From positions 6,729-70,728 of the IMG/VR virus record IMGVR_UViG_3300037851_000445: a stretch of DNA of 64,000 nt. One strand, written 5' to 3'. Shown piece by piece: positions 14,947 through 50,886 of this stretch (position 1 is its first letter; every line of letters begins with the position of its first letter). Below the pieces are notes generated by a model. It made no database searches. It was not told the DNA's origin and was given only the letters and a program-made list of their open reading frames with translations. The position numbers and the translations under genes are program-made. Source of the stretch: a virus.

Positions 14947-15216
14947 ATGGACCAGACTAAACTCAATACGATCATCCAGGACATCATCGAAGACAAGCTC
15001 GGTCCTGTCGAAACCATGCAAGCGGAACGCGAGTTCGTGCGGCTCCTGATGCAAGAGCGGGCGGAACGAAAGCAGCTCTGGCAGAAGGTGAAGCAGAACG
15101 TGGTCGGTCATACGATGATCATTCTGTTGTCGGGGTTGGGATACCTCGGGTGGCAGATCGCGAAGTTCCTGTTCAATCACGCGCCGGAATTCATCAGGGA
15201 GTGGGGTTCCAAGTGA
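14947..15216 (+). CDS. Small single-TM protein (holin/antiholin-like, uncertain)
   Basis: Coiled N-terminus plus one hydrophobic helix (VVGHTMIILLSGLGYLGWQIA), at the start of the lysis region. Confidence 0.45.
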   Translation: MDQTKLNTIIQDIIEDKLGPVETMQAEREFVRLLMQERAERKQLWQKVKQNVVGHTMIILLSGLGYLGWQIAKFLFNHAPEFIREWGSK

Positions 15217-15689
15217 CCACTATTGCAGCGAACCTGGAGTACATGGCCGCCGACACGAAGGTGACCATGGGGTCGAACGACATCTACCACACGCGCAAGA
15301 AGATCCAGCGGATCAAGGTGAAGGGCAAGACCATGATCGCCGGCGCCGCCGGGCTCGACTTCTACATCCAGCAGTTCTTCCTGTTCCTCAAGCAGGGCGG
15401 CGAGCCGAAGATGCAGCGCAGGGACATCGACGAACACACCGAAGATCTGAACTTCGAGGGGCTGGTTCTGTGTAGCGAGGGCATCCTTCTGTACGACGAC
15501 ACGCTCACAGCCGCGAAGATCGAGGAACCGTTCTACGCCATTGGCAGCGGCGGGCAGGCCGCCCGCGCGGCCATGACGATGGGAGCGGACCCGAAGCAGG
15601 CCATCAAGATCGCGTCGAAAATCGACAGCGCGACCGGGCTGCCGATCGTCACCCTCAAGCTCTCGAAGGACAAGACCAATGCCAGGTAA
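15213..15689 (+). CDS. Ntn-hydrolase (HslV/proteasome-beta-like peptidase)
   Basis: GTG start gives M-TTIAA (N-terminal Thr nucleophile); AADTK, KI..I, and FYAIGSGG..ARAAM..GA motifs. Confidence 0.75.
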   Translation: MTTIAANLEYMAADTKVTMGSNDIYHTRKKIQRIKVKGKTMIAGAAGLDFYIQQFFLFLKQGGEPKMQRRDIDEHTEDLNFEGLVLCSEGILLYDDTLTAAKIEEPFYAIGSGGQAARAAMTMGADPKQAIKIASKIDSATGLPIVTLKLSKDKTNAR

Positions 15690-24002: not shown

Positions 24003-27000
24003 ATGCCGCGTCTTGACGATGCCCCCATCGTTATTGGGGGTGCACTGGCGGATGCCTACGCCGCCCCGACCGAGCTAGAGGTCGCGCAGGAACAAGCCCT
24101 CCAAGATAAAGCCACCTCCGGGCCGCTCATGCACGGGCTCCGCTCTGGGTGGCTCGGCGTGCGGGGCGGCCTCACCTCTCTCGCGGGCACCGCCGCCGAG
24201 AACATGGGGCTGACGGACTTCGCCAACGCGCGCTTCCGCGAGGCGGACCTCTTCGCTCAGCAGGCGGAGGCCGCGGCGCCAGAGGTGCGGGACTACCGCG
24301 CCGTCAAGGATCTCCGTTCCGCGGCGGTCTACGCCCTGGGGCAGCTCGGGAACGCGGCCGCGACGATGGGGCCGACGGTCCTCACCGCGCTCGGGACGCG
24401 CGGGAGGATGGTGCCTACGTTCGGGGTAGCCGGAGGGATGATGGCCGGCGAGCAGGACGTGAACATCCGCCGGGAGAGCCCGCAAGTGGGCGCCGCGGAC
24501 CGCCTGGGCTCGGACGTAGCACAGGGTGTCGTTGGCGGCGCGCTGGAAGCCGCCGTGCCCCTCGCGCTCGCCCGCCGGGCGTCAGCCGGGCTCGGCGCTG
24601 GGCGGATCGGGACCTCGATGGCGCAGGAGGCCGCCACGGAGGCGGCACAGACCGTCTCGGGGCAACAGCTGCACGGGGCGGTAGACCCGGCACGGGATAC
24701 CTCGGACGACCGGGCTGAGATCATCAACGCCGCGATCGGCGGCGCGATCGGTGGCGGAGGTGCGCATCTGGTCAGCAGTCTGCCGGCTGCGGCGCAAGAC
24801 GTCGCTCCGCGAGTCCGCGACACCTTCGACGGCACACTCGAAGGCGCGAAGAAGCTCCTGGACAGGACACCTAGCATCGAAGACCTCAAAGGGATCACCC
24901 TGCCGGACGAGGTCAAGGACATCGACGCGGCCGTCAAGTTCGTCTCAGAGACGGAGAAGACCGCCCGCGAGGCCGCGGCGAAGGCCGCGAACTGGGTGGC
25001 GGAGCAGCCGCGGGCGCCGGAAGGCCTCAAGAAGGCCATGAGCGCGGTAGCCGATAGGCTCCAGGACCCGCTCCTGGACCCGGACACGCTGACCGAGCTT
25101 ACCGAGAAGACGAAGGCAGCCGTTGACAAGATCAAGGTCGATGAGAAGGTCCGGAGAGTCTCGAAGCGAGTGCGGCAGTACATCGAGGACGCCAAGACCA
25201 GCGTCGACGAGATCATGGCCGGGCGAGAGGCTGGTCGGCAAGCCGAGCGGTCCGCCGGGGACTACAACTTCGAGGAGCTCTCGAAGGCCCCGCCGAAGAA
25301 AAGCAAGTTCGACATGCGCCCGCTCTGGTCGCCCTCCCCGCTCGGTAGCGTCGGCCCTGCCCCGTCGAAAGGGGTTGTCGGCGCGCCCAGCGACATCCGC
25401 ATGGGTCCGAAGCCGCCGTCATACAAGACGGCCGCCGCAAGGATCATCGGACCGCGCCTGGACTACACGCCGACGAACGCGCCGCGCACGATTCCGGAAG
25501 ACGAGTACACGCCGGCAACGCAAGAGCAGCTGCAGGCACTTGCGCGGAAGTACTCCAAGGACCCGAGCCCGGCTCCGCTCGAAGCCCCAGGCCGCGAGCC
25601 GGACCTCGAGGTCCTGGACATCATGACGTCGCACCTGGACCCGCAGTTCGTAGCCCAGGCCGACGCGGAGGCTCTGCTCGACCTTGCCGAAACCCACCAG
25701 GAGTACGTCAAGCACATCGTCCAGAAGACGGTCGAGCGGCGCGCCCAGGCGATCAAGACCGGCTCGATCCAGAACGACCCGGACGTTGCTCCGCTGCCGT
25801 TCCGCCCGGACGCCGAGCTGGTCGAGCTCTACGGCTCGCCGAAGAAAGCGAAAGCCGCGCTGACGGCTGTTGCGAAGCACATGTTCAAGCGCGGGGACTG
25901 GGCGGACGTCGGCGCGATCCCGGAGGATCTGGATGAGGTACCGCGGTTCGACCGGAGCCTACGGCAGCAGGCAACATACGGCAGGGCCGTTGAACTGGCT
26001 GTGGCGAGGCATCTGTACCCGCAGTTCCTCAAGACCCGCGACGTCCGCGCGCACGTCGCCAATCAGGTCGGCGAGCGAGTGACGGACTGGCTGCGCGATC
26101 CGCAAGCTGGAGCGGCGCAGGAGCTCGTTACGGACATCAAGAGGTTCGTGAAGGACCCCGAGGGCCTGCTGGACGAGCTCTTCGCTCTCACCGAGCAGCG
26201 CCGGTCGTTTGTCAGCGGTGCGCAGCTGCTCGACGACAACACCGGAGACCTCGTGGACCTCGAGTCCGGCGCCCCGCGCGACGAAACGCGCGGCGCGGAC
26301 CTGGCCCCGACGGAGCAGATCGGCCGGGTTGGCGACGTCGCCGGCGGGCCGAGCGGGGACCGCACCGGGTTCGGTATGCCGCAGCGCCGGGAGCCGACCG
26401 ACGTCGAGCTCCGTCTCTTCAAACAGATCAAGTCTGGCATCGCAAACTGGTTCCAAGACGTTCCGACCGAGGGCGCCAAGGAAGGGATCATCAAGACCAT
26501 GCCCCTCGGTTTGTACCGAGACATCCAAGAACTGCTGGAACAGGATGGGCTCGATGAGCTGAACCCCGATCACGTTCAGTTCATCGAAGAAACTCCGGCG
26601 AAACTGGAGACGCTGTACAACATCGAGCTCAGCAGCGCCGACAAGATCAAGCAGGCTCGCGAGCGCGCGGACGGGATCCTCGACGTGCTGCAAGGGCGCG
26701 GCACGGAGTGGTATGCGCTGTCGATCACGAAGCGGTACAACAGCGGCCAGTTTACCGTCAATCTGAACGTAGGCACGAAGCGCGTGGACACACAGCGGCT
26801 GTTCAACGCGATGAACCGGCGCTACAAAGGCGAGTACGACGCGAACGAGCGTACCGGCCAGACAGCGCGGAAGTACGTGTCGGACATGTTTGCCCGCGGA
26901 ATCTCCCACCTCGTCGCCGACGAGCGAGTCCGCCAAAACGCCCCGCTGCACGCGAACGCCTTCAACTTCGACGACGACGAAGTCCTGGTGACCCACAACG

Positions 27001-30000
27001 GCGTGAAGTACACGTGGGGAGACATCAAGCATGGCCAGCTCGAGCAAGGCGAGTCGGAGGTGATACGGCGTCTGCGCTCCGTCGACGACCCCACGCTGCA
27101 TGTCTCGCGCGCGCAGGGGGCGGAGGAGATCACCAAAGAGGCGACCGACGAGTGGGGCAACAAGCGTATCGAAAGCCGCGCGCTCGACGCGGCGCGCGTC
27201 GTGAAGAACAAAGACGGCACTGTGCGCGGGGTCATCGTTCCGGAAGACAACACGGACGCCGGCTACATCGCGGACGAAGCCACGCTCGCCGGTCTGGAAA
27301 CGGAGCACGAGCAATTCGAGGCGAGTGAAGCCCGCAAGGAAGCAATGCGCGGGATCCTAGCGAAGTACGCCAAAGAACGCTCGGGCATCAGTGCGGAGCT
27401 GAAAGCCGGCAAGCTCACGAAGGAAGAAGCGCGGGACCAGTTCGCCGAGATCTCGGCAGCTGAGAACCGAGAGCTCGAGGCCCTTCCGCGCGAAGAGGCC
27501 ATGGCAACCCTGCGCACTACGCGGATAGCAGACACACTGCCGACGGGTACCGAGCAGCGCAAGGCCATGAAGGCCGAGCGCGCAGCGCCCAGGATCCGCG
27601 TTACGGATGAAGAAAAAGCGGGACAAGAAGAGCGAGAGGCTGAGCGGCGGCGCATCAACCGAGTGACCGAAGAGGCTCGGCTAGAAAGGGCCGCGGAGCG
27701 CAGCAGCCCCACAGCTGTGCGGACCCACGCCGGCGCGGACACGGCTAATACCGACACCGTCTCCGCCCTCGCTAGGGACGCGGTGACTGCTCGCCAAGCC
27801 CCCAAGAAGAACAAGCCGCAGGAGACCTTCTCGGATGACGTTGCGGAAGCCCGCGCTATCGGGACCTCGGCGCAGGCCGCGACCGCCGCGAACTGGTTGC
27901 TGAACAAAGGGAACCTGAACGACGAGCAGAAGAAGACGCTGCGGAACCTGATGGCGAAGAAGAACTGGATGGGCGTGCTAGATTACGCCTCTCAGTTCGT
28001 GGAGCCGAAGCAGACGAAGATGCGGATCGACGGGACGGACGAGCTCCATCCCGAAGCGCAGGCGGCGATCCGCGCGGAGATCGAACGGATACTCGGCAAG
28101 AAGGACACCGAGGTGCTCTTCAAGAAGCTCGAGGAGATGGACGGCGCACAAGGGCGCTTCATCGACCTCGACCCGATCGAGCGCATCCAGATCTCCCTCA
28201 TGACCGGCGCTCCGATGGCTACGGCGTACCACGAGGTGGCCCACGCGTTCTTCGCGCGGCTCGCCAAGTCCAACTCCCCGCTGGCCAAGCGCGTGATGAA
28301 CGACCTGCTCGAGTTCTCCGCGACTCCGCGCACTCGCGCGCAGCTGGAGAAGCTCATCCGCGAGCACGCGACTAAGGACAGCGTCGACGACGCGTTGAAG
28401 CAACTGGATGACCCGGAAGAGCGCGTCGCGTTCGCGTTCCAACTGTGGCGGCAGGGCAAGCTGGAAGTAGGACCGCGCACCGACGGCTGGTTCAACCGCA
28501 TCCTGAACTGGATCGCCAAGGTGGTCAACATCGTGCCGAAGGATCAGCGCATTGCTGACTACTTCGACGCTCTGTATCGCGGTCGCTTCGCCAACAAAGA
28601 CGCGCTCACCGAGGTCCTAGCGGACGTCCGCCGGGACGACGCGTTCGATCAGGCCGACGCGAGCATGCCCCATGTGATGAACTGGGTGAACAAGGCGTTC
28701 AGCACCGCAGACGGCTGGATTCGGGACCAGAAGATCCCGGCCCTGACCGAGCTCGCCGACAAGATGTCCCTCGGCATGGGCGAGCAGAACAAACGCCCGG
28801 GCTTCATGCAGGCGAAGCACGTCGAGCTGAACAAGCGGATGAACCGGCTGATGGCTACCGTGCGCGGGAAGAGCAAAGAGCAGATGCGCATGGCGCTCGA
28901 CGCGCTCCAGAAGCAGAGCGGCGTGCCGCCGCAGGACGAGGGGGCGAAGGCAATCTACAACAGCGTGCGGGAGATCCTCGACGAGACGCACCAGTACATC
29001 ACGAAGGCCGGCGTGCGGCAGTACGTCGGGCGGAATGACGAGGGCGAGCCGCAGTTCGCGCCGATCAAGTACCTCCAGAACTACTTCCCGCAGATGTGGG
29101 ACCCCGAAGCCATCCGCGCCGACAAGGCCGGGTTCGAGAAGCTGCTCGCCGACTCCGGCATGAAGCCGGAGATGATCAAGATGGTGTACGACTTCCTCAC
29201 GCAAATGCACGGGAACAACGTGACTCTCGGGAAGAACGACCTCACCGGCGCGCTGCAGTTCCGCTTCGACGCGGCGAACGCGCGGATCCTGGACGACCTC
29301 AACAGGGACCTTGCGCAGAAGTACATGCAGAAGGACCTCATCTTCGCGATGAGCACGTACCTGAATCAGGCGGTGAAGCGCGCGGAGTGGTCCCGCCGCT
29401 TCGAGAACGGGCAGGGAGAGAGCACGATCCCTGACACCATACTGAAGGCGAAGGAACAGGGGATGTCCGACGCAACGGCGAAGGACGTGACCCGGTACCT
29501 GCAGGCCATGGAGGGCACCCTGGGGCACGACATCCCGCAGGAGCTCCGCAATCTGTTCGGCGGCCTCACGGTGTACCAGAACATCCGGCTGCTGCCATTC
29601 ACCCTCATGAGCTCCCTCGTGGACCCCATGGGGATCGTCGTGCGCGGCGGCTCCTTGGCCGACGCGTTCCAGGCGTACGTCAAGGGCGTGAAGGGCCTGG
29701 TCGGCAAGGGCGCCGATGAGGACTTCGAGCTGGCCTCTACGCTCGGAGCGATCGAAGAGGGCTCCGCGATGTCCATGTACGGGGACCTCTACGGCTCCCA
29801 GTACATGACGCCGTGGCAGCGCCGTGTGAACAGCGCGTTCTTCCGCTGGAACGGGATGGAGGCGTGGAACCGTGGCATGCGGATCGCAGCGACGCGAGCC
29901 GCCGTGCGCTTCCTGGACCGCCACGCTAAGGGCGCGAACCAGCACTCGGCACGCTACCTCGCCGAGCTGAACGTGACAGCGGAGGACATCGCCGCGCGGA

Positions 30001-30512
30001 ACGAGAAGTGGGCTGAGGCGGTGAACAGCTGGGTCGACCAGTCCATCCTGCGGCCGAACGCTTCCCAGCGCCCGATGTGGATGAGCGACCCGCACTGGCA
30101 GCTGGTCAGCCACCTGAAGCAGTTCACGTACAGCTTCCAGAAGGTGATCCTCGACCGCGTGTTCCACGAGCTCAAGCACGGCAACTCGTCGCCCTTGATC
30201 GCCCTGAGCAGCTACGTTCCCATGATGATCGCGTCCGACATCATGCGGCAGTTGCTCACGCTGGGCACGGACGAGCCCGACAAGGACTTGAGCCAGTGGA
30301 TGCTCCAGGGCGTACAGCGCGCGGGTATCCTGGGGCCGGCTCAGTTCGTCGTGGATGCTTACGGGGACGCGAAGCATGGTAAAATGGGCGCGGAAGGGCT
30401 GTTCGGCCCGAGCGCCGAGCAGTTGGCGGACCTGGCCCGAGCCACTACCGCCAAGGGCTCGATCTCCGACTGGCTCGTCCGAGCCGGACCGGTCAACGCG
30501 ATCTACAGGTGA
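24003..30512 (+). CDS. Large internal virion/ejection protein (2169 aa) with zincin HExxH metallopeptidase motif
   Basis: AAGGAG SD; AYHEVAHAFF at 28230-28244 plus downstream EERVAFAF; C-terminal helical domain typical of podophage ejection proteins. Confidence 0.75.
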   Translation: MPRLDDAPIVIGGALADAYAAPTELEVAQEQALQDKATSGPLMHGLRSGWLGVRGGLTSLAGTAAENMGLTDFANARFREADLFAQQAEAAAPEVRDYRAVKDLRSAAVYALGQLGNAAATMGPTVLTALGTRGRMVPTFGVAGGMMAGEQDVNIRRESPQVGAADRLGSDVAQGVVGGALEAAVPLALARRASAGLGAGRIGTSMAQEAATEAAQTVSGQQLHGAVDPARDTSDDRAEIINAAIGGAIGGGGAHLVSSLPAAAQDVAPRVRDTFDGTLEGAKKLLDRTPSIEDLKGITLPDEVKDIDAAVKFVSETEKTAREAAAKAANWVAEQPRAPEGLKKAMSAVADRLQDPLLDPDTLTELTEKTKAAVDKIKVDEKVRRVSKRVRQYIEDAKTSVDEIMAGREAGRQAERSAGDYNFEELSKAPPKKSKFDMRPLWSPSPLGSVGPAPSKGVVGAPSDIRMGPKPPSYKTAAARIIGPRLDYTPTNAPRTIPEDEYTPATQEQLQALARKYSKDPSPAPLEAPGREPDLEVLDIMTSHLDPQFVAQADAEALLDLAETHQEYVKHIVQKTVERRAQAIKTGSIQNDPDVAPLPFRPDAELVELYGSPKKAKAALTAVAKHMFKRGDWADVGAIPEDLDEVPRFDRSLRQQATYGRAVELAVARHLYPQFLKTRDVRAHVANQVGERVTDWLRDPQAGAAQELVTDIKRFVKDPEGLLDELFALTEQRRSFVSGAQLLDDNTGDLVDLESGAPRDETRGADLAPTEQIGRVGDVAGGPSGDRTGFGMPQRREPTDVELRLFKQIKSGIANWFQDVPTEGAKEGIIKTMPLGLYRDIQELLEQDGLDELNPDHVQFIEETPAKLETLYNIELSSADKIKQARERADGILDVLQGRGTEWYALSITKRYNSGQFTVNLNVGTKRVDTQRLFNAMNRRYKGEYDANERTGQTARKYVSDMFARGISHLVADERVRQNAPLHANAFNFDDDEVLVTHNGVKYTWGDIKHGQLEQGESEVIRRLRSVDDPTLHVSRAQGAEEITKEATDEWGNKRIESRALDAARVVKNKDGTVRGVIVPEDNTDAGYIADEATLAGLETEHEQFEASEARKEAMRGILAKYAKERSGISAELKAGKLTKEEARDQFAEISAAENRELEALPREEAMATLRTTRIADTLPTGTEQRKAMKAERAAPRIRVTDEEKAGQEEREAERRRINRVTEEARLERAAERSSPTAVRTHAGADTANTDTVSALARDAVTARQAPKKNKPQETFSDDVAEARAIGTSAQAATAANWLLNKGNLNDEQKKTLRNLMAKKNWMGVLDYASQFVEPKQTKMRIDGTDELHPEAQAAIRAEIERILGKKDTEVLFKKLEEMDGAQGRFIDLDPIERIQISLMTGAPMATAYHEVAHAFFARLAKSNSPLAKRVMNDLLEFSATPRTRAQLEKLIREHATKDSVDDALKQLDDPEERVAFAFQLWRQGKLEVGPRTDGWFNRILNWIAKVVNIVPKDQRIADYFDALYRGRFANKDALTEVLADVRRDDAFDQADASMPHVMNWVNKAFSTADGWIRDQKIPALTELADKMSLGMGEQNKRPGFMQAKHVELNKRMNRLMATVRGKSKEQMRMALDALQKQSGVPPQDEGAKAIYNSVREILDETHQYITKAGVRQYVGRNDEGEPQFAPIKYLQNYFPQMWDPEAIRADKAGFEKLLADSGMKPEMIKMVYDFLTQMHGNNVTLGKNDLTGALQFRFDAANARILDDLNRDLAQKYMQKDLIFAMSTYLNQAVKRAEWSRRFENGQGESTIPDTILKAKEQGMSDATAKDVTRYLQAMEGTLGHDIPQELRNLFGGLTVYQNIRLLPFTLMSSLVDPMGIVVRGGSLADAFQAYVKGVKGLVGKGADEDFELASTLGAIEEGSAMSMYGDLYGSQYMTPWQRRVNSAFFRWNGMEAWNRGMRIAATRAAVRFLDRHAKGANQHSARYLAELNVTAEDIAARNEKWAEAVNSWVDQSILRPNASQRPMWMSDPHWQLVSHLKQFTYSFQKVILDRVFHELKHGNSSPLIALSSYVPMMIASDIMRQLLTLGTDEPDKDLSQWMLQGVQRAGILGPAQFVVDAYGDAKHGKMGAEGLFGPSAEQLADLARATTAKGSISDWLVRAGPVNAIYR

Positions 30513-32029: not shown

Positions 32030-32166
32030 ATGTCCTCGCTCTTCGTCGCCTTGAGTCGTACCTTCATCTTGTGGCCCGTCTCCCGGGCGTGCGCCACGGC
32101 CTTGTTCTTGATCACAGTGGTGAAGGGGCAGTCGTAGCACCAGTAGCTGTCGAACTGGAACGTCAT
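32026..32166 (-). CDS. C2H2-type zinc-finger microprotein (46 aa)
   Basis: GGGAG SD; YWCYDCPFTTVIKNKAVAHARETGH = C-x2-C-x12-H-x5-H. Confidence 0.55.
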   Translation of the reverse strand: MTFQFDSYWCYDCPFTTVIKNKAVAHARETGHKMKVRLKATKSEDM

Positions 32167-33026
32167 GCTCCCGCTGGCCTCAGCCCGAGATAGACAGGGT
32201 GTCTCGGCTTGTCCTTCACTCCCACGGGGAAGAACTTGTACTTCACCACCTGCCCGATCATCGTCTTTCGTTGCTTCCAAAATACCTCCTTGTCGTTGTC
32301 ATCCAGCCCTGTACCCACCGTGAACTCGACTCCGGTGTAGCAATCCCGGACCGCAAGGCCTCCGGCCCTTCCCTTCGGGACCAGGCCCTTCTTAGCGCTC
32401 GAGCGGCTCGTACGACCGAGCTCGTTCTTTGTCGCGGCATTCGTGTTCTCCATCTCCTCGATCACTTCGAGGATCCTCGCTTCCGAATCCTCGAACCGCT
32501 TCAGCTTCATCATGCCCTGCTCCTTCATCGTGGAGCGGCCGAATTTGTAGACACCCTGCGGGCTGCGCAGTATCAGACCTTCGTACCCAGCATCCAGGCA
32601 CTCGCTTTCGTAGTCGAGTAGCTGCTTCTCGGTCTTGATCCGACGCTGTTCCAGAACAACGACGCTCACGCCGCGGTACGGGTTGAGCGTCTTGATACGG
32701 TCCTCAAAACCGAGATCCGAGTCCCAGTTGTCGAAGACGAAGAGGCGCACGAGTGGTTCCCCGTGCTCACGCATTACGCCCGCAACGGTCTGGCGGTAGC
32801 AGTCTGGCGCGGTTGGCCGATCGACGATGAGTTCACCGTCTGCTCCGTGAAAACGCGGACTACCGAATAAGACGTTCACGTGCGGATTGGGCACCGGCTT
32901 TAATGCGCGGGTGAACAACGTACCGCGGTTGTTCAGAACTCGGACGCCGTCGAGCTTTGGCGACGCGAGCACGGGGAAATTGACGGCCGACACGTCTTTG
33001 ATAGTTGCGGCCAGCATCGGCTTCAC
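32163..33026 (-). CDS. ATP-dependent DNA ligase
   Basis: KPMLA, motif I SPKLDGVR, DGEL, EGLILR, LKRFEDSE, OB-fold VGTG and KYKFF...KPRHPVY; AAGGAG SD before GTG at 33026. Confidence 0.92.
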   Translation of the reverse strand: MKPMLAATIKDVSAVNFPVLASPKLDGVRVLNNRGTLFTRALKPVPNPHVNVLFGSPRFHGADGELIVDRPTAPDCYRQTVAGVMREHGEPLVRLFVFDNWDSDLGFEDRIKTLNPYRGVSVVVLEQRRIKTEKQLLDYESECLDAGYEGLILRSPQGVYKFGRSTMKEQGMMKLKRFEDSEARILEVIEEMENTNAATKNELGRTSRSSAKKGLVPKGRAGGLAVRDCYTGVEFTVGTGLDDNDKEVFWKQRKTMIGQVVKYKFFPVGVKDKPRHPVYLGLRPAGA

Positions 33027-33499
33027 TTTGTGAGCTCCTTGAGTTTGAGTCCGATTGCGACGAGTTCCTGCCATGTCGCGTTGTTCTTGATCGTGTTGGC
33101 TCGGTGCGATACGACCAGCACGTTGCCCGGAGTGTAGCCCAATGATGGGATGATACTGTCGAGAGTTGGACTATTTGGCCCGAACTTCTGGCCATTCCTC
33201 ATCAACCTCACCCCGAGATACGGGCACAGCCCGTTCTTGGGGAAGACGATGTCTTCGAGGGTGATGAGGAATGGGACTCCGCGCGCTTTGGCGCGCGCTT
33301 TAGCACTAGACAGCAGCTGGCGCCGTGGATCTCGGCGCCACTTATGGCTCTTCTCGATGTTGTGCTGCGGGTTGTCCTTCAGGCGCTGCTTATCGCGCGC
33401 CTTTGTACAGTGAACGCAGTGGCCTGACTTGTACCTCTCGGTGGTACCGCAGGCCTTGCAGAGTTTTCCGTGGTAGGTAGTCGTAGTGGCACGTGGCAT
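33023..33499 (-). CDS. HNH-family endonuclease with N-terminal Zn-ribbon
   Basis: CKAC..CVHC; CPYLG...SPTLDSIIPSLGYTPGNVLVVSHRANTIK. Confidence 0.8.
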   Translation of the reverse strand: MPRATTTTYHGKLCKACGTTERYKSGHCVHCTKARDKQRLKDNPQHNIEKSHKWRRDPRRQLLSSAKARAKARGVPFLITLEDIVFPKNGLCPYLGVRLMRNGQKFGPNSPTLDSIIPSLGYTPGNVLVVSHRANTIKNNATWQELVAIGLKLKELTK

Positions 33500-33506
33500 G
33501 CCTTGA

Positions 33507-33515
33507 AGTTTAGCA
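33507..33515 (-). promoter_or_regulatory. Extended -10 promoter (TGCTAAACT), probably leaderless HNH mRNA
   Basis: TGnTAAACT ends 7 nt before the ATG at 33499; no SD present. Confidence 0.45.
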
Positions 33516-33536
33516 CGCCACGCGCCAAAAACCAAG

Positions 33537-34007
33537 CTACGGAAGCTGGCACTCCTCGCTTTCAGCCACCTCGGGGATCTTGCACATCACCTTCTGCACG
33601 CTGCGAACCGTGAAACCGGAGGCGCGCATGCCGTCGGCGATAGCCAGAAATTTGCAGAACTCGACGCTGTAAGTGCCGCCGAACGGGCCCACACTGATGG
33701 ATCCCTGACAGCTGTTCGCGGACGCGGCCAGACCCGTTCCCCCGAAGCTCAGGGACTTGGTCTCGACGTCCACCGGATTGTTGACGACTGGGTTAGCCGT
33801 GGCCGTAGCCGCGCCGCCGGAACCGATGCCGAGTGCACTTGCCTGTGCTGCCGCAGCAGAGAACGCGTGACCGCCGGTGGCGGTTGCCGTCGGACTCCCG
33901 CCGGAAGTCGGGCAGTTGCCCTGACAGCCGTTCTGGTTCCCAGTCGCGAAGGCGCTAGTGGCCAAGAGACCGAGGATGATGCCGATGAAGAGGTGCTTCA
34001 TGTTCAC
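33537..34007 (-). CDS. Secreted Cys-containing protein
   Basis: Sec signal MKHLFIGIILGLLATSAFA; NGCQGNCP, Ala/Gly/Thr stretch and further Cys. Confidence 0.6.
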   Translation of the reverse strand: MNMKHLFIGIILGLLATSAFATGNQNGCQGNCPTSGGSPTATATGGHAFSAAAAQASALGIGSGGAATATANPVVNNPVDVETKSLSFGGTGLAASANSCQGSISVGPFGGTYSVEFCKFLAIADGMRASGFTVRSVQKVMCKIPEVAESEECQLP

Positions 34008-34672
34008 TCCGTTGTTGAAGGTTCAAGACAATGGGACCAGTAGCGGGAGTCTTTGTACCCCTGCTTCTTGTCCCAGTAGGCGCAGCGGGCGACGTACGGC
34101 GAGACGCCAAGCGCCTCGCTGCGGCCGACCCAGTCGGTTTCGATCTGTTCGTATTGTTGTTGTGTCTGCCGCCCGTTGCGCCGCTCCACCCCGTAGAGGC
34201 GTAGCATGTGCACGTCCAGGCAGGTGAGCTTCACTTCGAGCGGGAACGCCATCTCGAGCGCGAAGGTGGTCTTGGCGAGCCCAAGCCCGGCGACGCGTTG
34301 CTCCAGGCGGTTCCGTGCGTTGCTCCACGGCTCGTGTAGGCCGCGGTAGTACACCGTCGGGTCCGCCCAGAAGTCCTCCTTGAAGGCCCAGATGTACTTG
34401 GTGCGGTTGTTGTGCATTCCTGCGCGGGAGCAGATCAACAACCGGCGGAGCTCCTCCTTGTCCGTCATCCAGACCTTGAAGTCCTTGATAGCGTTGTAAG
34501 CATTCACGTTGCTCTTCCACGTCGTGTGGACCGAGCAGAACGCGAACAGCCAGCGCCGGAAATACTCGTTGTCGTCCTGGGCAGCGACGCCGCTCCAGTA
34601 GTTGGAGTAGTCGTCGCGGCCTGGGAAGTCTTGATGCAGCTCGTTGAAGACCGCGGCGACTTCGGGTGTCAC
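34004..34672 (-). CDS. HhH-GPD superfamily DNA glycosylase/AP-lyase-like protein (OGG/EndoIII-like)
   Basis: HhH VAGLGLAKTTFALEM (Lys at lyase position) followed by CLDVHMLR (catalytic Asp); start inferred at GTG 34672. Confidence 0.7.
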   Translation of the reverse strand: MTPEVAAVFNELHQDFPGRDDYSNYWSGVAAQDDNEYFRRWLFAFCSVHTTWKSNVNAYNAIKDFKVWMTDKEELRRLLICSRAGMHNNRTKYIWAFKEDFWADPTVYYRGLHEPWSNARNRLEQRVAGLGLAKTTFALEMAFPLEVKLTCLDVHMLRLYGVERRNGRQTQQQYEQIETDWVGRSEALGVSPYVARCAYWDKKQGYKDSRYWSHCLEPSTTE

Positions 34673-34842
34673 GTATTCGGCCCCTTCGCGACAACTTGCC
34701 GCAGCCAGATGCCGCCGTCTTGGGGATCGTACGTCACGATTAGGGGCCCGACCAAGTGGTACCCCTGATCCAGGTACACGACCACGCAACGCGAGAACGT
34801 GACGCTGTCGACGCCGGTGAGGATCTTGTAGTCGTTGATCAT
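34669..34842 (-). CDS. Hypothetical protein (57 aa)
   Basis: Overlaps both neighbours by ATGA/GTGA; MINDYKILTG...YLDQGYHLVG. Confidence 0.5.
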   Translation of the reverse strand: MINDYKILTGVDSVTFSRCVVVYLDQGYHLVGPLIVTYDPQDGGIWLRQVVAKGPNT

Positions 34843-35021
34843 TTCTTCTCCGATTCCGCCAGGCGGTCGAAAACGGCGCGAGTGAGTTCTGCGCGCGCAC
34901 GCGCTACCTCGGCCTCTTTCTTCATAAAGAAATGGTGGGCTTCAGCCATCGAGTCGACGGCCTCTTCCAGCTTCAGGATTGCACTGCGGATGCTCTCCGG
35001 GAGATCACTGAAGTACTTCAT
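34839..35021 (-). CDS. Hypothetical coiled-coil protein (60 aa)
   Basis: ATGA overlaps, helical sequence. Confidence 0.5.
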   Translation of the reverse strand: MKYFSDLPESIRSAILKLEEAVDSMAEAHHFFMKKEAEVARARAELTRAVFDRLAESEKK

Positions 35022-35350
35022 TGCACGGTCCTCGCCATGAGGAACTCGTAGTCCCCCGGCAGCGCCGGCAGAACCAGCACGCGAAGGACGTTCAACTCGG
35101 CGCCGTCGAACACGGCGATGAGTTTGTCCTTGGCTTCTTGGACGCTGTGCGCCGCGACGCGGTAGACCCAGACCTCGTTCGGGCCGTCGGGGACCTGGAC
35201 GGTCACGTTGACGGGGTAGAGCCGCGCCGGGTCCTGGAAGTCCACGAACGTGGGGTTGAAGAGCGATTCCTCCGGCGGCTGCATGGCAGCTTCGCCGATT
35301 GCGTTCCCGTTGCACCTGGCGGCGAGCTCGATTTCCTGGATCCCGCTCAT
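35018..35350 (-). CDS. Hypothetical protein (110 aa)
   Basis: Coupled in-operon ORF. Confidence 0.5.
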   Translation of the reverse strand: MSGIQEIELAARCNGNAIGEAAMQPPEESLFNPTFVDFQDPARLYPVNVTVQVPDGPNEVWVYRVAAHSVQEAKDKLIAVFDGAELNVLRVLVLPALPGDYEFLMARTVQ

Positions 35351-35571
35351 GCTTGCTTCCTCTTCTTGGTTGCGACCAGTGGATGCGCTTTGTGTCCGGT
35401 AACCACACACGTACGCGGGCGGCGTTCCGAGATCAAGTGCTTAGCACGAAGTTCGAAGACAGCGCGGCACACCGAATTAATCGGCACGCCGCTAAAGCGG
35501 GAAAGCTCGCTGCGAGTCACAGATCCGAGCAACCGGATGTCGCGGAGCAAGCTCTGTTCCTGAGTGATCAT
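35347..35571 (-). CDS. Winged-HTH DNA-binding protein (putative)
   Basis: VTRSELSRFSGVPINSVCRAVFELRAKHLI helix-turn-helix pattern, then CVVTG. Confidence 0.6.
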   Translation of the reverse strand: MITQEQSLLRDIRLLGSVTRSELSRFSGVPINSVCRAVFELRAKHLISERRPRTCVVTGHKAHPLVATKKRKQA

Positions 35572-35579
35572 TGGGTCCT

Positions 35580-36263
35580 CTAATGTGGTGCGAAGTGAAT
35601 CGGCCTGTCAGTGCTCCAGCACAGGCCGCAAGTTAGGCAAGATTGGGTCTTGCCGGTCTGCTCGGGGCACGGTATCCCCTCGCCAGATACGTTGGCGCTC
35701 ATCTTCCCGCCGCGATCGGAGAAGCGTATCCAGCATCTGTCGCTGTTCATTTCCTGAATCACCTTCCCGATTCCATCCGAGTGCTCCGGCCACCGGTGTG
35801 TATACCCGAAGATCCGCAATCGGGGGTACTTCACCAGTGCGTGCTTCCAGAACGCCGTGTATTTCTTGTCCAGAAAGTCGCCAAGGACGTGCAACCGGAC
35901 GACAAAGCCATCGATGTGCTTCGCGTGCAGCTCGGCTAGCTCTCCGGTGAGACAGTCGTAGAAGTCCGGGTGCGTTACGTCCGCGCGGTGCGCGAGGTAC
36001 ATGTTGTTGCCGTAGCAGTTGGCCCACTGTGCGCAGGATGCTGGGCATGTTTTCCTTTCTTCAAGGGTCAGTTGGTAGAGCGGCATGCCCTTCCATTTGC
36101 CCTTCGCGATCTTCATCTTGCCTTTGCCTAGTTTGTTATTCGAGTTGGCTGGCTTAAGCAGCCTCGTCTCGTACGGGCTCTTCACTGACTTCGTGAAGAT
36201 TGTGCGCCCTTTACCGGCCAAAGCTGGGTGATCTGCACGCAGCGTTGTCACAACCGAGCCCAC
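35580..36263 (-). CDS. GP88-family Cys-rich (Fe-S/radical-SAM-like) protein
   Basis: N.KLGK, TCPASCAQWANCYG, VRLHVLGDF, FGYTH, C-terminal CPEQTGKTQSCLTCGLCW. Confidence 0.7.
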   Translation of the reverse strand: MGSVVTTLRADHPALAGKGRTIFTKSVKSPYETRLLKPANSNNKLGKGKMKIAKGKWKGMPLYQLTLEERKTCPASCAQWANCYGNNMYLAHRADVTHPDFYDCLTGELAELHAKHIDGFVVRLHVLGDFLDKKYTAFWKHALVKYPRLRIFGYTHRWPEHSDGIGKVIQEMNSDRCWIRFSDRGGKMSANVSGEGIPCPEQTGKTQSCLTCGLCWSTDRPIHFAPH

Positions 36264-36499
36264 TTTCCGCCCCGCGCGCCATGCCCAGTTGGCGATGGAA
36301 CCCAGTAGCGTACGGCTCCAGAGGCGGTCACTTTGTAGCGCCGTTCTTCCACTACTGGCAAGTCTACGATGAAGTACGGAAGAGGATCGAAAGAACCCGC
36401 GTACTCCGCGGTTTTGGGCATGAGAACTGAGAGCTTGTAGGCGTGGCCGGCCACCAGCTGTGCCCTGCCGTTAACCCACATTCGAATCCAGTCCTTCAT
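36248..36499 (-). CDS. Hypothetical protein (83 aa)
   Basis: In-operon ORF. Confidence 0.45.
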   Translation of the reverse strand: MKDWIRMWVNGRAQLVAGHAYKLSVLMPKTAEYAGSFDPLPYFIVDLPVVEERRYKVTASGAVRYWVPSPTGHGARGGKWARL

Positions 36500-36693
36500 T
36501 GTGCGTCTTTTGGCTTGCGAAACAGTACTCGTCCGCTACGCAACGAGGCTTGCATGTCAGCGATCTCGGCAAACAAGCGCTCGCGCTGCGAGAGTGTCAG
36601 CGCCGAGAACTCTTTCTGATTCACCAAGATCCCATCGAGATGCCCGGCGAGGCGATCGCAAACCCACCACAAGCGTTCCTTTTTGCTTTTCAT
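36496..36693 (-). CDS. Hypothetical protein (65 aa)
   Basis: AGGAG SD; ATGA overlap. Confidence 0.5.
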   Translation of the reverse strand: MKSKKERLWWVCDRLAGHLDGILVNQKEFSALTLSQRERLFAEIADMQASLRSGRVLFRKPKDAQ

Positions 36694-36749
36694 TTGGTGT
36701 CTTTCTCCTCTCGTAGTTCAGTCGAGAATGATGCCACCCGGAAGTCCTT

Positions 36750-37097
36750 TTAGAAGGCCTTGCCATGCTTGTAAGGGCGGGTGGTGTTGTACTCGTGCTT
36801 CAAGCGAATCGCTTCGCCGATGTTGATACCGTACATGTAGCAGAAGTCGAACACGCGGATCACGACGTCCGCCATCTCAGCACCCAGCGCTGAGATTTCG
36901 GGGACCTTGGTATCGCGCGCTGTCGGATCCTTTCGAAGAACCTCAAGCGCTTCGGAAAGCTCGCTATGCATCAGCGCGATTTTCTCCGGCAAGTTCGGTT
37001 TGTCATTCCAGAAGCCGTGGTCGTAGGCGTTGTCGAAGGCCAGGCGCGCCACCTTATTGATGACGGCGGCTTCCTCCGGGGAGATTTGGTTGGCCAT
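36750..37097 (-). CDS. MazG-like nucleotide pyrophosphohydrolase
   Basis: IALMHSELSEALEVLRK...EMADVVIRVFD...AIRLKHEYNTTRPYKHGK. Confidence 0.85.
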   Translation of the reverse strand: MANQISPEEAAVINKVARLAFDNAYDHGFWNDKPNLPEKIALMHSELSEALEVLRKDPTARDTKVPEISALGAEMADVVIRVFDFCYMYGINIGEAIRLKHEYNTTRPYKHGKAF

Positions 37098-37142
37098 GCT
37101 TTCGTACTCCGTACTTGAAGATGTTGTACATCAGCGCAGTTG

Positions 37143-37619
37143 TCAGGACGATGGTGTAGAGCGCCTTGACAACTTGCGCGGTCGTAAAGATGTGGTGCTT
37201 GACGGACATGGATCCTTTAACGTACGGCTCGCAATCCACTCCGCACACTTGGCCCGGGAGACCACCCCGGCGAGGAACGTGGATCGCGTTAGCGTGAGCT
37301 TCCTGAGCTCGTTCGGGTCGGCGCCCCAGACAAACGCCCCTTCTTTACACCCGACGATCACGGCGACATGTCGGCCTTCCAGGTGACGCCTAGTGATCCA
37401 TTCCCATTGCAGCGGCGACAACTCAACGTCTATGACGGTGTCTGCGCGCTTGGGGAGGATGACGAACTTGTACTCGACCCAAAGGTCGGCCTTGTCACCT
37501 GAGTACCACACATCTGGCGTCCCGCCACGGTAGGGATTCGCCATCTTCTCTCTGTGAAGTTTTGGAGGGAGATGGTTGTGCACGCTGCTGATGAACACGT
37601 TTTCCGGCTTCCTACTCAT
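37143..37619 (-). CDS. VRR-NUC / PD-(D/E)XK nuclease (resolvase-like)
   Basis: ENVF...GTPDVWY...LWVEYK...LSPLQWEW. Confidence 0.75.
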   Translation of the reverse strand: MSRKPENVFISSVHNHLPPKLHREKMANPYRGGTPDVWYSGDKADLWVEYKFVILPKRADTVIDVELSPLQWEWITRRHLEGRHVAVIVGCKEGAFVWGADPNELRKLTLTRSTFLAGVVSRAKCAEWIASRTLKDPCPSSTTSLRPRKLSRRSTPSS

Positions 37620-37833
37620 CGTCGGATTCAACCGTGTACTCGGCGATGATTTCCACGGGCTGCGCCGGTTTGTCCATGTGGAACACGAACGATTGGCCCG
37701 AAGGGAATGCGCCTTCTATGAAGCGCTGAGATGTGGCTAAGCGCTCAAGTGCTTCCGCCACGTTTGGCGCAAGAGTCTCGTTACCATGACGTGCGCCCGT
37801 CATGATCTTTAGCATTAGCGTGAGCCTACGCAT
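37612..37833 (-). CDS. Hypothetical protein (73 aa)
   Basis: Coupled in-operon ORF. Confidence 0.45.
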   Translation of the reverse strand: MRRLTLMLKIMTGARHGNETLAPNVAEALERLATSQRFIEGAFPSGQSFVFHMDKPAQPVEIIAEYTVESDDE

Positions 37834-38203
37834 CGGCTGTGGCTCGTTCCAGGGTGAGTTCCATGTTATGAAGCGGCACGTAGTGAACGTCGATGCCGCA
37901 CGCTCTTGCGACCTGGATCTCCCGCTGCACGCCTCGCGATTCCTCCCATCCCGGGAGCATCAACACCACCAACGCTTCGCAATGCCGCAGAACCGATAGG
38001 TCCTGCCGCATCCAGAACTCGTGGTCAAGCTGTCGCTCAGGTTCCAGGTGCAGAGAGATGAAGTGGCTGTGCGGGATCGGTGCGAACACCGTATACCCTT
38101 CTGCCATCAGTTGCGCTGCGTACTTACATGCGATGTCGACACGCTCTTCGAGCAGCGCTTTGTCGTTGGTCGAGTACGGAGTCGCGAGGTAGATGAAGCT
38201 CAT
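37826..38203 (-). CDS. DUF1937 / nucleoside 2-deoxyribosyltransferase-like protein
   Basis: IYLATPYS...VFAPIPHSH...FWMRQDL..L..CEALVVLMLPGWEESRGVQREI. Confidence 0.8.
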   Translation of the reverse strand: MSFIYLATPYSTNDKALLEERVDIACKYAAQLMAEGYTVFAPIPHSHFISLHLEPERQLDHEFWMRQDLSVLRHCEALVVLMLPGWEESRGVQREIQVARACGIDVHYVPLHNMELTLERATADA

Positions 38204-38204
38204 G

Positions 38205-38597
38205 TTAGAACTCCGGAGTGAGCTTCGCGAACGTGTGCGGCATGTCGTCCAGTTCCTTCGGGAGGACGCCCACGCGGATGCGGTGCTTGGTTTCGATGTA
38301 GTGTGCGATGTTCCACATGGCCGCGGCCTCGTGGTCCTCGTCTTCGTACCCGGCGATCTCCTTGTCGAGGTGCCGGATGGCGCTGTTGATGAACTCCGAC
38401 AGCGGAATGCCCTTCTCCCAGTTGCGCGCGTCGTACTTCAGCGAGCCTTTCTGGTTGTGGAGGTCGTACCGCTGCAGCGCGTGCACCGCGCGCAAAACAG
38501 GGAGGCCCTTGAGGTCCCCGCGGTCGCGCACGGCACCGGTCTTGAACTTGCGGCGCTTGCCGCTGTCCTTCAGTAGGCCCTGGGCCTTCTTCTTCAT
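38205..38597 (-). CDS. dATP/dGTP diphosphohydrolase (DUF5664-like)
   Basis: F.TGAVRD....K...GSLKYDARNWEKGIP....SAIRHL....EDHEAAAMWN. Confidence 0.8.
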   Translation of the reverse strand: MKKKAQGLLKDSGKRRKFKTGAVRDRGDLKGLPVLRAVHALQRYDLHNQKGSLKYDARNWEKGIPLSEFINSAIRHLDKEIAGYEDEDHEAAAMWNIAHYIETKHRIRVGVLPKELDDMPHTFAKLTPEF

Positions 38598-47518: not shown

Positions 47519-48556
47519 TTACGCCAGCGCCTCGTCGCGGTAGAACTGCACGACTTCGTTGTTGTCGTTGTCCACGAGCTGCACCACGTAGTTGTCGCCG
47601 TTACTGACGTAGTCGCGGAACATTTCTCGAGCCAGGCCTTCTTCGACGGCACTGAACGTCTCGCGCAGTTCAACGTCACCGTTAATGAACGCGTCTCGCG
47701 TGAGGTACGTCCGCACTTCCCACTTGTCCGGAAAGCCCACTTCGTCGCGATACGGCGCCTCGAAGGCGAGGTCCTCGGAGCCGTTGGCGCTGAACAGCCA
47801 GCTGTCGCCCAGCACGTGCCGGTGAGTGTCGTAGTAGTCTTCGACTTCGTCGATCACCTCGTACGCGCAGACGCGCATCTTGGTGTTGTTGTAGTCCGTC
47901 GGGATCGCAACGACGTCCGCCGGGTTCACCTTGCAGATGACCACGTGCCCATCCGCGTGTGCGAACGCCGGCAGGTAATCGAACGAGCAGAGGTGCAGCC
48001 CGTACGAACACGTGCGGTTCTGGTTTTCGTCGACCTTGTTCCGCGGAACGGACGGCGTGGCGCCGATGTGGTTCGAGATCCGGCCGCTGTGAATGTCCAT
48101 CCAGTCCTTCCGGACCGCCTTGTACGCCAGGAAGCAGCCATCTTCGGTGAGCGGCATCTTGCCGTAGTCGAGGAACTCGAACAGGCGTTGCACGACCCGA
48201 TAGCTCGGGTTGTCTTCGAGCAGCGTCAGGAAGTTCACGATCGGCTGCAACGGAAGGCCGGCGCGCACCATTTCGAGGATGCGCTTCTGCACGAACTCGG
48301 GGATCTCCTCGCCCTTGAACAGCACGGTCTGAGTGGCTTCGTTGACCGTGAGATCGTTCAACGACGATCCCCTCACCGCCAGGACCACGAGCTCGCCGTC
48401 GCTGCGTACGAGGTCTTCGAGTTCGAGGTCATCAGTGTTCGGATCCGCCAGTGCTTGGCTGATGGTCTTGAAGCTCGGCGAATCGGCGGCTATGGTCTTC
48501 GGGCGCCCGTCGATGATAAAGGTAAGGCCTTGTTGCGTCTGAATGTAGGGGATCAT
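47519..48556 (-). CDS. rIIB: rIIB-like protein
   Basis: NFL..LE.NPS.R.V..LF.FL.....PLTEDG.FLAYKAVR.D.MDIHSG...R.KVD.N.NRTCSYGLH.CS..Y. Confidence 0.9.
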   Translation of the reverse strand: MIPYIQTQQGLTFIIDGRPKTIAADSPSFKTISQALADPNTDDLELEDLVRSDGELVVLAVRGSSLNDLTVNEATQTVLFKGEEIPEFVQKRILEMVRAGLPLQPIVNFLTLLEDNPSYRVVQRLFEFLDYGKMPLTEDGCFLAYKAVRKDWMDIHSGRISNHIGATPSVPRNKVDENQNRTCSYGLHLCSFDYLPAFAHADGHVVICKVNPADVVAIPTDYNNTKMRVCAYEVIDEVEDYYDTHRHVLGDSWLFSANGSEDLAFEAPYRDEVGFPDKWEVRTYLTRDAFINGDVELRETFSAVEEGLAREMFRDYVSNGDNYVVQLVDNDNNEVVQFYRDEALA

Positions 48557-50886
48557 GCTGCGTCCTTAAGTGAGTTGAGTTGAACTAATTCCTGCTCGGT
48601 AATGAGCAGGGCTTTTACGCGGAGCGCCGCGTCTTCCGGCTTGAGTTTGAGGAGTTGCATGCTCAGTTCCTCGTGTTCAAACGCTTGCGCGAATGGGAAC
48701 TGCGAGAGAGCGGTGTTGTAGAACACGGAAAAGTCCAGCTTCTTGCTGTCGAGATTGATGGCGCCTTTTTGATCCATCAGAGACAGCGCGTTCTGAACTT
48801 CTGCTTTAGCCCGGCTTGCGATCATTGCCTTTGGGGATCGCCAGACCTTGTACTGGTTGTACACGTCCTCTAGACCGGTAGATTTTACCACCGGTTCGAT
48901 GACACGCTTGAGATCCGGGTGTTCGTACGCCGCCTCGATGAAGGCCAGGATCCCGTGGTTTTTGAAGGAAGTCTGCACTTCCATGTTGATCGGCGGCACG
49001 TCCATCAAGATCGTTTCGACTGCCTTGACGTTTATGAGGCTGCCCGCGATCTTCATGAAGAACTCCCACTTGAGGTCCTCGGCCTTTTTGTTCTTCGCCC
49101 ACCATCCGGCCGACACGACGATGTAGCCGGTGTACTTCCCGTTCAGCAGTTTGCGCGCGTTCAACGCGCGGAACGCGTTGATGGTAGCGCGTACTGCATC
49201 TTCGCTCACGGTCTCCCAGCCTTTACCGTCGGAAGTGCGGCCCGTTCGGTATTGACACCATCCATTGATTCTCTCCGAAGAAGAAACCAACCAGCATCTC
49301 GCGCTGGGCGGTACATCCTTCAGCTTGCATTTCGTTTCCTTGCCGGTGAAGTCCACCCACTCGACCTCCTGGTCTATGTCGAGCGGGGCCCCGCCTTTCT
49401 TTCGAGGTCTACTGCCCGCTGCGTAAACCGGTTTGGTGTACGGCAGGCTGGAGACTGGCTTGTAGCCTGGATCTCCGAGCGATCGCGAAATTGACTTCGC
49501 TGTGGCGAGATCCTTTGCCCATAGCACTTCTTGTGTGTCGATCGGTTTCGAAAGTAAGTAGTCCCGGATCCGCGCATGTACATGCTTCGTTGCGTTGTCC
49601 GTGTAGTAGATCTCGAAGTTCTTGTCCGGATGAATGTACAGGCTGTCGGTGAGTGCGGTCAGTACCTTCTTCTTGCACACTCCTTTCCGCACCTGCGTGA
49701 AGATTTGCGGATCCATCGTCCCGTCGGATGGCAGGCCACATTCTTTCCATCGAATCGTGACCCAGTCCGACCACATGTCGCTCACGAACTTCATGATGGT
49801 CGGCGTATCGCGTTTCACGTGCGTGAGGAGTTTGCGCACGTTGTCGGCGAACCGTAGGTTGTAGCCCGTGACGGAGCGCCATTTGTTTGCGACCGTCTCG
49901 CGCTTTGTCCACAGAGTGGATGTTGCGTCCTCGATGTCGTCGGCGATCTGGTTCCCCAGCCACGTAGCGATCTCAGTGAGCCGCGCCTCGATGAGTTGTT
50001 TCGTTTGCGCGTCGTACTGCAGCGCTTCACGGGAGGGTGTCACCTTCAATTCACCGATTCCGAATTCCAGAAGGAATGGCGACGATTGTAAGCCGTACCT
50101 GTTAGACGCTAACACGCCGGCCAGAGGGTGTTTATGGAAGTGCGTACCGATGTCTAGCAAATACGTGATCCCACCCATCGACACGTAGCTTGCGGTTGGG
50201 GAGTTGCCGCTCGTTGAATCGAATCGAGCCCAGCCGACGTGTTGCTCTTTGAACTTGATCGGCTGGATCGTCGCTCCCCCGATCACCTTCGGCTGCACCC
50301 GGAACCATTGGTAGACGGCCTGAGCCCGATCCTTGAAGACGCTAAAGTCCTCTGCCCTCACCGGGATGCGGATCTGCACCCCGGTGGGCCAAGTCGGTGA
50401 GGCGTCCTTTTCCTCGAGCATCGAGATTGTAGGGATGCCGTTGTTATCCACGTAGGCACCGTACGTTCGTTGCTTCCCGTTGTACGCTACGACCATTGAG
50501 TACTGATCGGTATACGCGTATGGGGACTTGCTCCCGATACCAAAGCCGCCGATCTCGCTGTTCGAGGATCGTTTTGTGCTAGCCCCATAGGTCATGAAGA
50601 GCTCCATGACCGTGTTGTGTGACATCCCCGTGCCGAAGTCCTTGATGTAGAACTCCGGGTCCATTTGAGTCGGAAGTTTCACCTCGAACGGCGTGTTCGG
50701 GCATCCATTCGCGACATGCGCGTCGAGTGCGTTGGCTGCAAGTTCCCGCACTATGGCGCGAATCGGATCTGAGTACATCTTCGCCAACATCTGGAACATG
50801 TGGGCGTTCATCGAGATCGTAGCACGCGCTGTCGCAAGAGTGCCGCGCGTAGCTATCACGTGCTGCTCGTCGTGTTGAAGTTTCAT
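48553..50886 (-). CDS. rIIA: rIIA-like protein (GHKL ATPase N-terminus)
   Basis: MYSDPIRAIVRELAANALDAH, KDFGTGMS, YGASTK..SN..IGGFGIGSKSPYAYTD; adjacent to rIIB. Confidence 0.9.
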   Translation of the reverse strand: MKLQHDEQHVIATRGTLATARATISMNAHMFQMLAKMYSDPIRAIVRELAANALDAHVANGCPNTPFEVKLPTQMDPEFYIKDFGTGMSHNTVMELFMTYGASTKRSSNSEIGGFGIGSKSPYAYTDQYSMVVAYNGKQRTYGAYVDNNGIPTISMLEEKDASPTWPTGVQIRIPVRAEDFSVFKDRAQAVYQWFRVQPKVIGGATIQPIKFKEQHVGWARFDSTSGNSPTASYVSMGGITYLLDIGTHFHKHPLAGVLASNRYGLQSSPFLLEFGIGELKVTPSREALQYDAQTKQLIEARLTEIATWLGNQIADDIEDATSTLWTKRETVANKWRSVTGYNLRFADNVRKLLTHVKRDTPTIMKFVSDMWSDWVTIRWKECGLPSDGTMDPQIFTQVRKGVCKKKVLTALTDSLYIHPDKNFEIYYTDNATKHVHARIRDYLLSKPIDTQEVLWAKDLATAKSISRSLGDPGYKPVSSLPYTKPVYAAGSRPRKKGGAPLDIDQEVEWVDFTGKETKCKLKDVPPSARCWLVSSSERINGWCQYRTGRTSDGKGWETVSEDAVRATINAFRALNARKLLNGKYTGYIVVSAGWWAKNKKAEDLKWEFFMKIAGSLINVKAVETILMDVPPINMEVQTSFKNHGILAFIEAAYEHPDLKRVIEPVVKSTGLEDVYNQYKVWRSPKAMIASRAKAEVQNALSLMDQKGAINLDSKKLDFSVFYNTALSQFPFAQAFEHEELSMQLLKLKPEDAALRVKALLITEQELVQLNSLKDAA

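Follow-up and report, generated by a model that had tools for sequence, protein, structure and literature searches.

The window analysed here is a stretch of 64,000 nucleotides (positions 6,729 to 70,728 of the IMG/VR virus record IMGVR_UViG_3300037851_000445), and our subject is a pair of genes in it, one encoding an HhH-GPD protein (below, the HhH protein) and the other a protein of the GP88 family. The whole virus record is 71,790 bp long and rated 100% complete, and its start sequence recurs near the end. The genome, that of a PolA phage, encodes terminase-like and portal-like proteins. Its structural arm lies on the plus strand, and its minus-strand arm comprises primase, rIIA/rIIB, helicase and the family A polymerase. 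The block containing the pair forms the far end of the minus arm and stops at a terminator-like hairpin (31827-31812). All of its named genes are read in one direction, from the minus strand, and most of them directly adjoin one another. The conserved core of the block is the HhH gene together with the GP88 gene, and the rest are mostly ordinary phage nucleotide and replication genes. A rewired glycosylase kept beside GP88 in unrelated phages points to a DNA lesion or base that is processed by the phage. The features, in window coordinates, are:

32163-33074, minus strand: ATP-dependent DNA ligase, a recurrent accessory gene (Pfam E 1e-9; PHROG 4e-55)
33023-33535, minus strand: endonuclease VII/HNH-like gene, likely to be a mobile insert (PHROG 3322, E 8e-30; not present at the equivalent position of relative L175)
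34004-34672, minus strand: HhH-GPD protein with OGG2 fold, 222 amino acids, core (Ogg-HhH E 9e-7)
35580-36254, minus strand: GP88 (PF17338), 224 amino acids, core (E 3e-6)
36750-37097, minus strand: MazG-like pyrophosphatase, passenger (no Pfam match; PHROG 3301, E 2e-30)
37143-37619, minus strand: VRR-NUC-like nuclease of the PolA/helicase/SSB replication module (no Pfam match; motif and synteny)
37826-38203, minus strand: DUF1937, nucleoside deoxyribosyltransferase-like, passenger (E 9e-23)
38205-38597, minus strand: DUF5664/dGTP_diPhyd_N, dATP-dGTP diphosphohydrolase-like, linked in the window's clade only (PF18909, E 4e-11)
47519-48556, minus strand: rIIB, a recurrent accessory gene outside the block
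48553-50886, minus strand: rIIA, a recurrent accessory gene outside the block

The genes named in the block by the initial annotation are real, by Pfam or PHROG matches and, for VRR-NUC, by its motif and its presence in polymerase relatives. That list had left out about ten unrelated open reading frames (ORFs) interspersed in the interval, among them the endonuclease-VII-like gene and an ORF for a 156-amino-acid product with a signal-peptide-like N-terminus. A promoter scan of the region gave chance level only.

We compared the gene content of the block across the window's clade. GP88 lay 0-2 kb upstream of the HhH gene in 11/11 HhH-positive clade contigs. Among relatives picked by their polymerase, GP88 was present in 1/33 (0/19 complete ones), HhH in 0/20 and rIIB in 0/20. 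GP88 matches were found in 17 of the 18 HhH genomes that were at least 90% complete (one match was below the Pfam cut-off); since the genomes are related, the tallies are not independent. The ligase accompanied 9/9 HhH-positive clade loci versus 4/14 controls, and DUF5664 was found at 7/9 clade loci, 1/14 controls and 0/192 loci of other lineages. The other listed genes behaved differently: DUF1937 was present at 2/9 clade loci and the MazG-like gene at 1/9, being absent from the closest relative, L175, while the VRR-NUC-like gene was present in 9/9 HhH-positive and 14/14 HhH-negative polymerase relatives. The idea that seven genes of the block form one repair and pool-sanitising pathway was therefore rejected, as MazG and DUF1937 are not co-conserved with the pair and VRR-NUC belongs to the polymerase module. 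On a quick polymerase tree, the state with both HhH and GP88 required two changes, of which the well-supported branches force one only.

The structural model of the HhH protein (predicted local distance difference test score 94) matched the T. maritima Ogg structure 3n0u with Z 20.2 and a root-mean-square deviation of 2.7 over 199 residues, whereas other HhH proteins reached Z 12.5 at most. Foldseek also linked the protein to OGG2 structures (E 1e-4). It has two alpha-helical domains and an HhH hairpin and lacks the A-domain of OGG1. This is the architecture of the OGG2 enzymes (M. jannaschii 3fhf/3knt, S. solfataricus 3fhg and T. maritima 3n0u; PF22175; TM ≈ 0.7), with which it also shares a catalytic Asp followed by His and a stacking Trp. 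However, its identity to OGG2 is only 15-18%, and the family, which comprises 430 representatives with E ≤ 0.001, is almost entirely viral and linked to GP88. No cultured phage was found to encode a member.

Conservation of individual residues was counted over 136 HhH representatives at 50% identity. The key residues of the window's protein are Ala133, Lys134, Asp153, His155, Arg196, Trp200 and a C-terminal SRYWS motif. The Lys of its GLGLAK sequence had been taken for the lyase Lys, but this assignment is off by one residue. In a profile alignment to OGG2 structures, the Lys column mutated by crystallographers (Gln in 3knt but Lys in 3fhf; Ser in 9o02 but Lys in 9o00) fell on Ala133 without a gap, and Lys134 was one residue further on. 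The same register resulted when the family profile was aligned with that of a phage paralog carrying a canonical G-V-G-P-K, and the ungapped alignment is backed by flanking matches of G, S, L and F. The pattern G-h-G-x-x-K occurred in 102/136 representatives and G-h-G-x-K in 0/136; in column 133, Ala was counted 117 times, Thr 13 times and Lys 3 times. Residues conserved in at least 130/136 were D153 (134), R196 (132), K134 and C151 (130 each), E178, W212 and F137. D153 aligns with the catalytic Asp of OGG2 about 20 residues past the hairpin, where the initial annotation had placed it.

Recognition of 8-oxoguanine (8-oxoG) by OGG2 depends on Asp194 and Trp198 and on the carboxylate of the C-terminal Lys, which senses N7-H of the base (PMC3397491). 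The Trp of the Asp194-x3-Trp198 pocket is retained in the HhH protein (W200), whereas the Asp is replaced by Arg196 in 132/136 representatives, the column being assigned via the canonical-Lys paralog. The His that follows the lyase Lys in OGG2 is Phe. The C-terminal Lys sensor is missing, as the chain extends at least 17 residues past W200 and ends in a variable residue (Lys in 7/136). Judged by the sequence register of these residues, the HhH protein has the scaffold of OGG2 but another, highly conserved pocket and is not a canonical OGG2: the Trp is retained, Arg occupies the Asp column, the chain is extended and the lyase Lys is lost. The strong conservation argues for a maintained function. 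HhH glycosylases without the active-site Lys are monofunctional (PMC13490550), and the active site contradicts an earlier reading of the protein as a bifunctional OGG/EndoIII enzyme. Hundreds of phage proteins are automatically annotated as 8-oxoguanine glycosylases without the residues that define this activity. Two family members, P0243 and P0247, have the HhH domain fused to a C-terminal region of ≈ 390 amino acids without a Pfam match. The HhH matches in G107 and G121 each contain one in-match TGA stop, which could reflect recoding, a break or the edge of the alignment.

The invariant residues of GP88 are C70-x3-C74-x5-C80, an RLHVLGDF motif and C196/C206/C209/C212. Distant GP88s keep the N-terminal Cys triad with variable spacing (Cx3Cx5C here; Cx6Cx3C, Cx13Cx2C and Cx5Cx20C in relatives) and often lose the four C-terminal Cys. 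The canonical CxxxCxxC of radical-SAM (S-adenosylmethionine) enzymes is absent from GP88. Non-canonical radical-SAM Cys spacings are known, for example in B. multivorans QueE. The top fold match was spore photoproduct lyase (SPL; Z 6.0), followed by many radical-SAM enzymes at a weak Z 4.4-5.1. About 15 radical-SAM entries were among the top 50 fold matches, in which STAS and AAA+ domains score alike; unrelated folds gave Z 4.8-5.3. Like SPL (4fhc) and minimal QueE (4njg), GP88 would have three Cys after the first strand and a partial barrel, and its second strand would close with a (G/L)GD motif that resembles GGEP. It differs from them by its variable, non-canonical Cys spacing, by Z values of only 4.8-6.0 and by the lack of a sequence match. 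Foldseek and Atlas searches with GP88 returned only GP88 itself or noise. From the modelled fold and the Cys triad, GP88 is plausibly a minimal radical-SAM-like Fe-S protein. The subfamily of the window's GP88 has > 2,300 relatives, and no paper relevant to its function was found in the literature searched; linkage to the HhH gene gives a concrete functional handle on it.

This linkage recurs outside the window's clade. GP88 was found within ≈ 1-2 kb of the HhH gene in five lineages, between which HhH identity is 23-37%. The GP88 gene follows HhH by 174 bp in L365 and by 871 bp in L172, and it abuts HhH in L477-487, in the order GP88-HhH-rIIB-rIIA. In L459-464, the order is rIIA-rIIB-GP88-paralog-x-HhH, and L456 is also linked. 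The GP88 partners of different lineages are mostly only 15-26% identical, with 17-26% among the five lineages, and the HhH and GP88 trees are incongruent; therefore, the GP88 partner has been exchanged while the linkage was retained. Among phages of 140-350 kb, GP88 was present in 28/43 records. In a set picked by UvdE, GP88 was found in 8/11 HhH-positive versus 4/20 HhH-negative records, a comparison confounded by fragment length. The recurrent linkage supports the initial proposal that HhH and GP88 are functionally connected in DNA-base chemistry. DUF7178 was considered as a substitute partner for GP88 and dropped (0/49 records, in a search with no positive control).

Repair-type genes recur beside HhH loci: within 8 kb of HhH, UvdE was present in 10/49 sequence clusters, ligase in 17/49 and either of the two in 24/49. 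Other recurrent neighbours were rII genes, DUF1281 and DUF932. rIIA was found at 59/173 HhH loci and at 19/23 divergent loci. The T4-type rIIA/rIIB pair is present in the window genome, and in several lineages no other close neighbour is as frequent; it adjoins HhH or GP88 genes in other lineages, but it lies ≈ 11 kb away in the window genome and is missing from one lineage with HhH and GP88. Among polymerase relatives, rIIB was present in G037, the only other HhH and GP88 genome tested, and absent from the 20 polymerase-matched controls. rII is known to act in counter-defence (PMC11879866), and the literature searched contained no link between rII and glycosylases or GP88. Our data offer a lead on the role of this long-unexplained neighbourhood.

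Many HhH loci also contain a second Ogg-like family with the canonical Lys (G-h-G-x-K and D-x3-W), to which the N-glycosylase/DNA lyase phiCbK_186 of Caulobacter phage phiCbK and its relatives belongs. It is homologous to the HhH protein (hhalign 98%) and likewise a phage Ogg-like protein encoded downstream of rIIA/rIIB or beside ligase, near GP88 in many uncultured phages; in contrast, it retains the canonical motifs and forms a separate, co-occurring family. Members were seen at L456:730-1302 and in L459-L487, with rIIA/rIIB and often GP88. The phiCbK gene (JX163858.1, 99394-99966) offers a cultured model of this second family, although phiCbK has no GP88 match.

A search of the complete genome for base-modification genes found neither PF00303 (ThyA-type) nor PF02511 (ThyX), and the controls of this search were detected. 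PurZ (PF00709) was absent from the window genome and from five related complete genomes, with 14/14 controls detected. The earlier statement that PurZ and thymidylate-hydroxymethylase genes are lacking thus holds genome-wide. In the search for AADT, no member of set A1 matched ADDT and PF18724 was absent from the genome, but no positive control was detected either; AADT-annotated viral models matched the HhH protein only at E 2-3. No modification enzyme came up when 59 further ORFs were scanned against Pfam. The reported absence of DpdA and Que genes stands to the extent that DpdA, FolE and QueC/D/E were not among these 59 ORFs, as no family-by-family six-frame search was made. Palindrome avoidance was rejected as a sign of modified DNA: there was no general depletion, HhH-positive loci equalled control loci and the measure was uninformative. 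As a separate observation on the whole genome, TACGTA occurred 0 times versus 18 expected on both strands, and ATAT was strongly depleted (4 versus 34).

We propose, with a probability of roughly 0.45 and on the strength of sequence, fold and linkage comparisons, that HhH and GP88 work as one module of the phage and remove an abnormal base other than 8-oxoG, a lesion or an adduct, from phage DNA. The HhH protein would flip the base against Trp200 and, as a monofunctional glycosylase, cleave it off in a reaction driven by Asp153. Nicking, gap filling and sealing would be carried out by host or phage enzymes such as PolA and the ligase, and UvdE or the canonical-Lys paralog may share these steps in other phages. 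More tentatively, GP88 may act on the same class of lesion as a radical-SAM-like enzyme with a [4Fe-4S] cluster held by three Cys. The lesion could stem from UV or oxidative damage or from a host-defence adduct, the last being suggested by the rII neighbourhood. No description of the pair was found in the literature searched, and it is apparently undescribed. Both proteins are small and directly assayable.

Several points, besides the relatedness of the HhH genomes, weigh against this proposal. The link is one-way, since only 1/29 GP88-picked records has HhH, and cultured phages carry GP88 without HhH. At least one complete genome, G029, has HhH and no detectable GP88, and the two genes are 3-20 kb apart in the large (140-350 kb) phages. 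The UvdE counts are dominated by a few close lineages, and the GP88 fold match is under the significance range of the tool (Z 6.0, with unrelated STAS domains reaching 5.3). The asymmetry of the link and the case of G029 would also be expected if HhH, GP88, rII and similar genes had gathered in one early region of accessory or counter-defence genes and acted separately, the HhH protein perhaps binding lesions or attacking host DNA alone. rII, DUF1281 and DUF932 are likewise frequent neighbours, and the polymerase tree demands only a single gain within the window's clade. Nevertheless, near adjacency across five lineages, with either gene order and with replaced GP88 subfamilies, and the retention of GP88 in the HhH lineage without rII make such independent passengers somewhat unlikely.

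The HhH protein may instead be a base-flipping transferase or exchanger with a shifted Lys, and GP88 a radical-SAM tailoring enzyme, together yielding modified virion DNA. This alternative rests on analogy with AADT and gp53 of phage M6: the M6/YuA thymidine hypermodification pathway (AADT/aGPT-Pplase2, 5-HMUDK and radical-SAM gp53) couples an HhH-containing protein with a radical-SAM enzyme that resembles SPL (PMC8989533). The altered repair residues, the conserved C151 (130/136) and the presence of DUF5664 beside HhH and GP88 in the window's clade are in line with it, as is the linkage of a nucleoside deoxyribosyltransferase domain to dZ contigs (bioRxiv 2025.10.22.683976). However, the window genome has no match to hmU synthase, the kinase or AADT, and the negative searches described above mean that a route without known precursors would be required. 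Also, the pool enzymes are not common to the lineages, and the fold is that of OGG2, whereas AADT has a distinct metal-dependent fold (PMC13458397). The modification alternative of the initial annotation hence stays viable, with no precursor genes behind it, and we consider it unlikely. We find it similarly doubtful that a minimal radical-SAM GP88 acting on DNA and the Lys-shifted OGG2-fold protein carry out an undescribed base chemistry, be it a new modified base without known precursor pathway or the reversal of an adduct placed by host defence, perhaps within the process against which rIIA/rIIB give protection. An ordinary 8-oxoguanine glycosylase/lyase that uses Lys134 as nucleophile after a local shift, with GP88 unrelated, would agree with the OGG2 structures being nearest, with the near invariance of K134 and with the database label "thermostable 8-oxoguanine glycosylase" given to relatives. 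It is very improbable, as the ungapped register places Ala at the nucleophile, the guanine-reading Asp is Arg, the C-terminal Lys is present in 7/136 only and some phages hold both the HhH gene and the canonical-Lys paralog.

The plus-strand arm of the window has features of its own. Three repetitive ORFs rich in Ala, Arg and Thr, with internal repeats, lie among the tail genes (4420-5718, 8084-9238 and 9238-11826, plus strand). An HslV/proteasome-subunit-like peptidase gene (15150-15689, plus strand) adjoins the endolysin gene. The structural arm ends with a gene for a 2169-amino-acid protein (24003-30512, plus strand), whose position is kept in clade relatives and which is probably an ejected internal virion protein.

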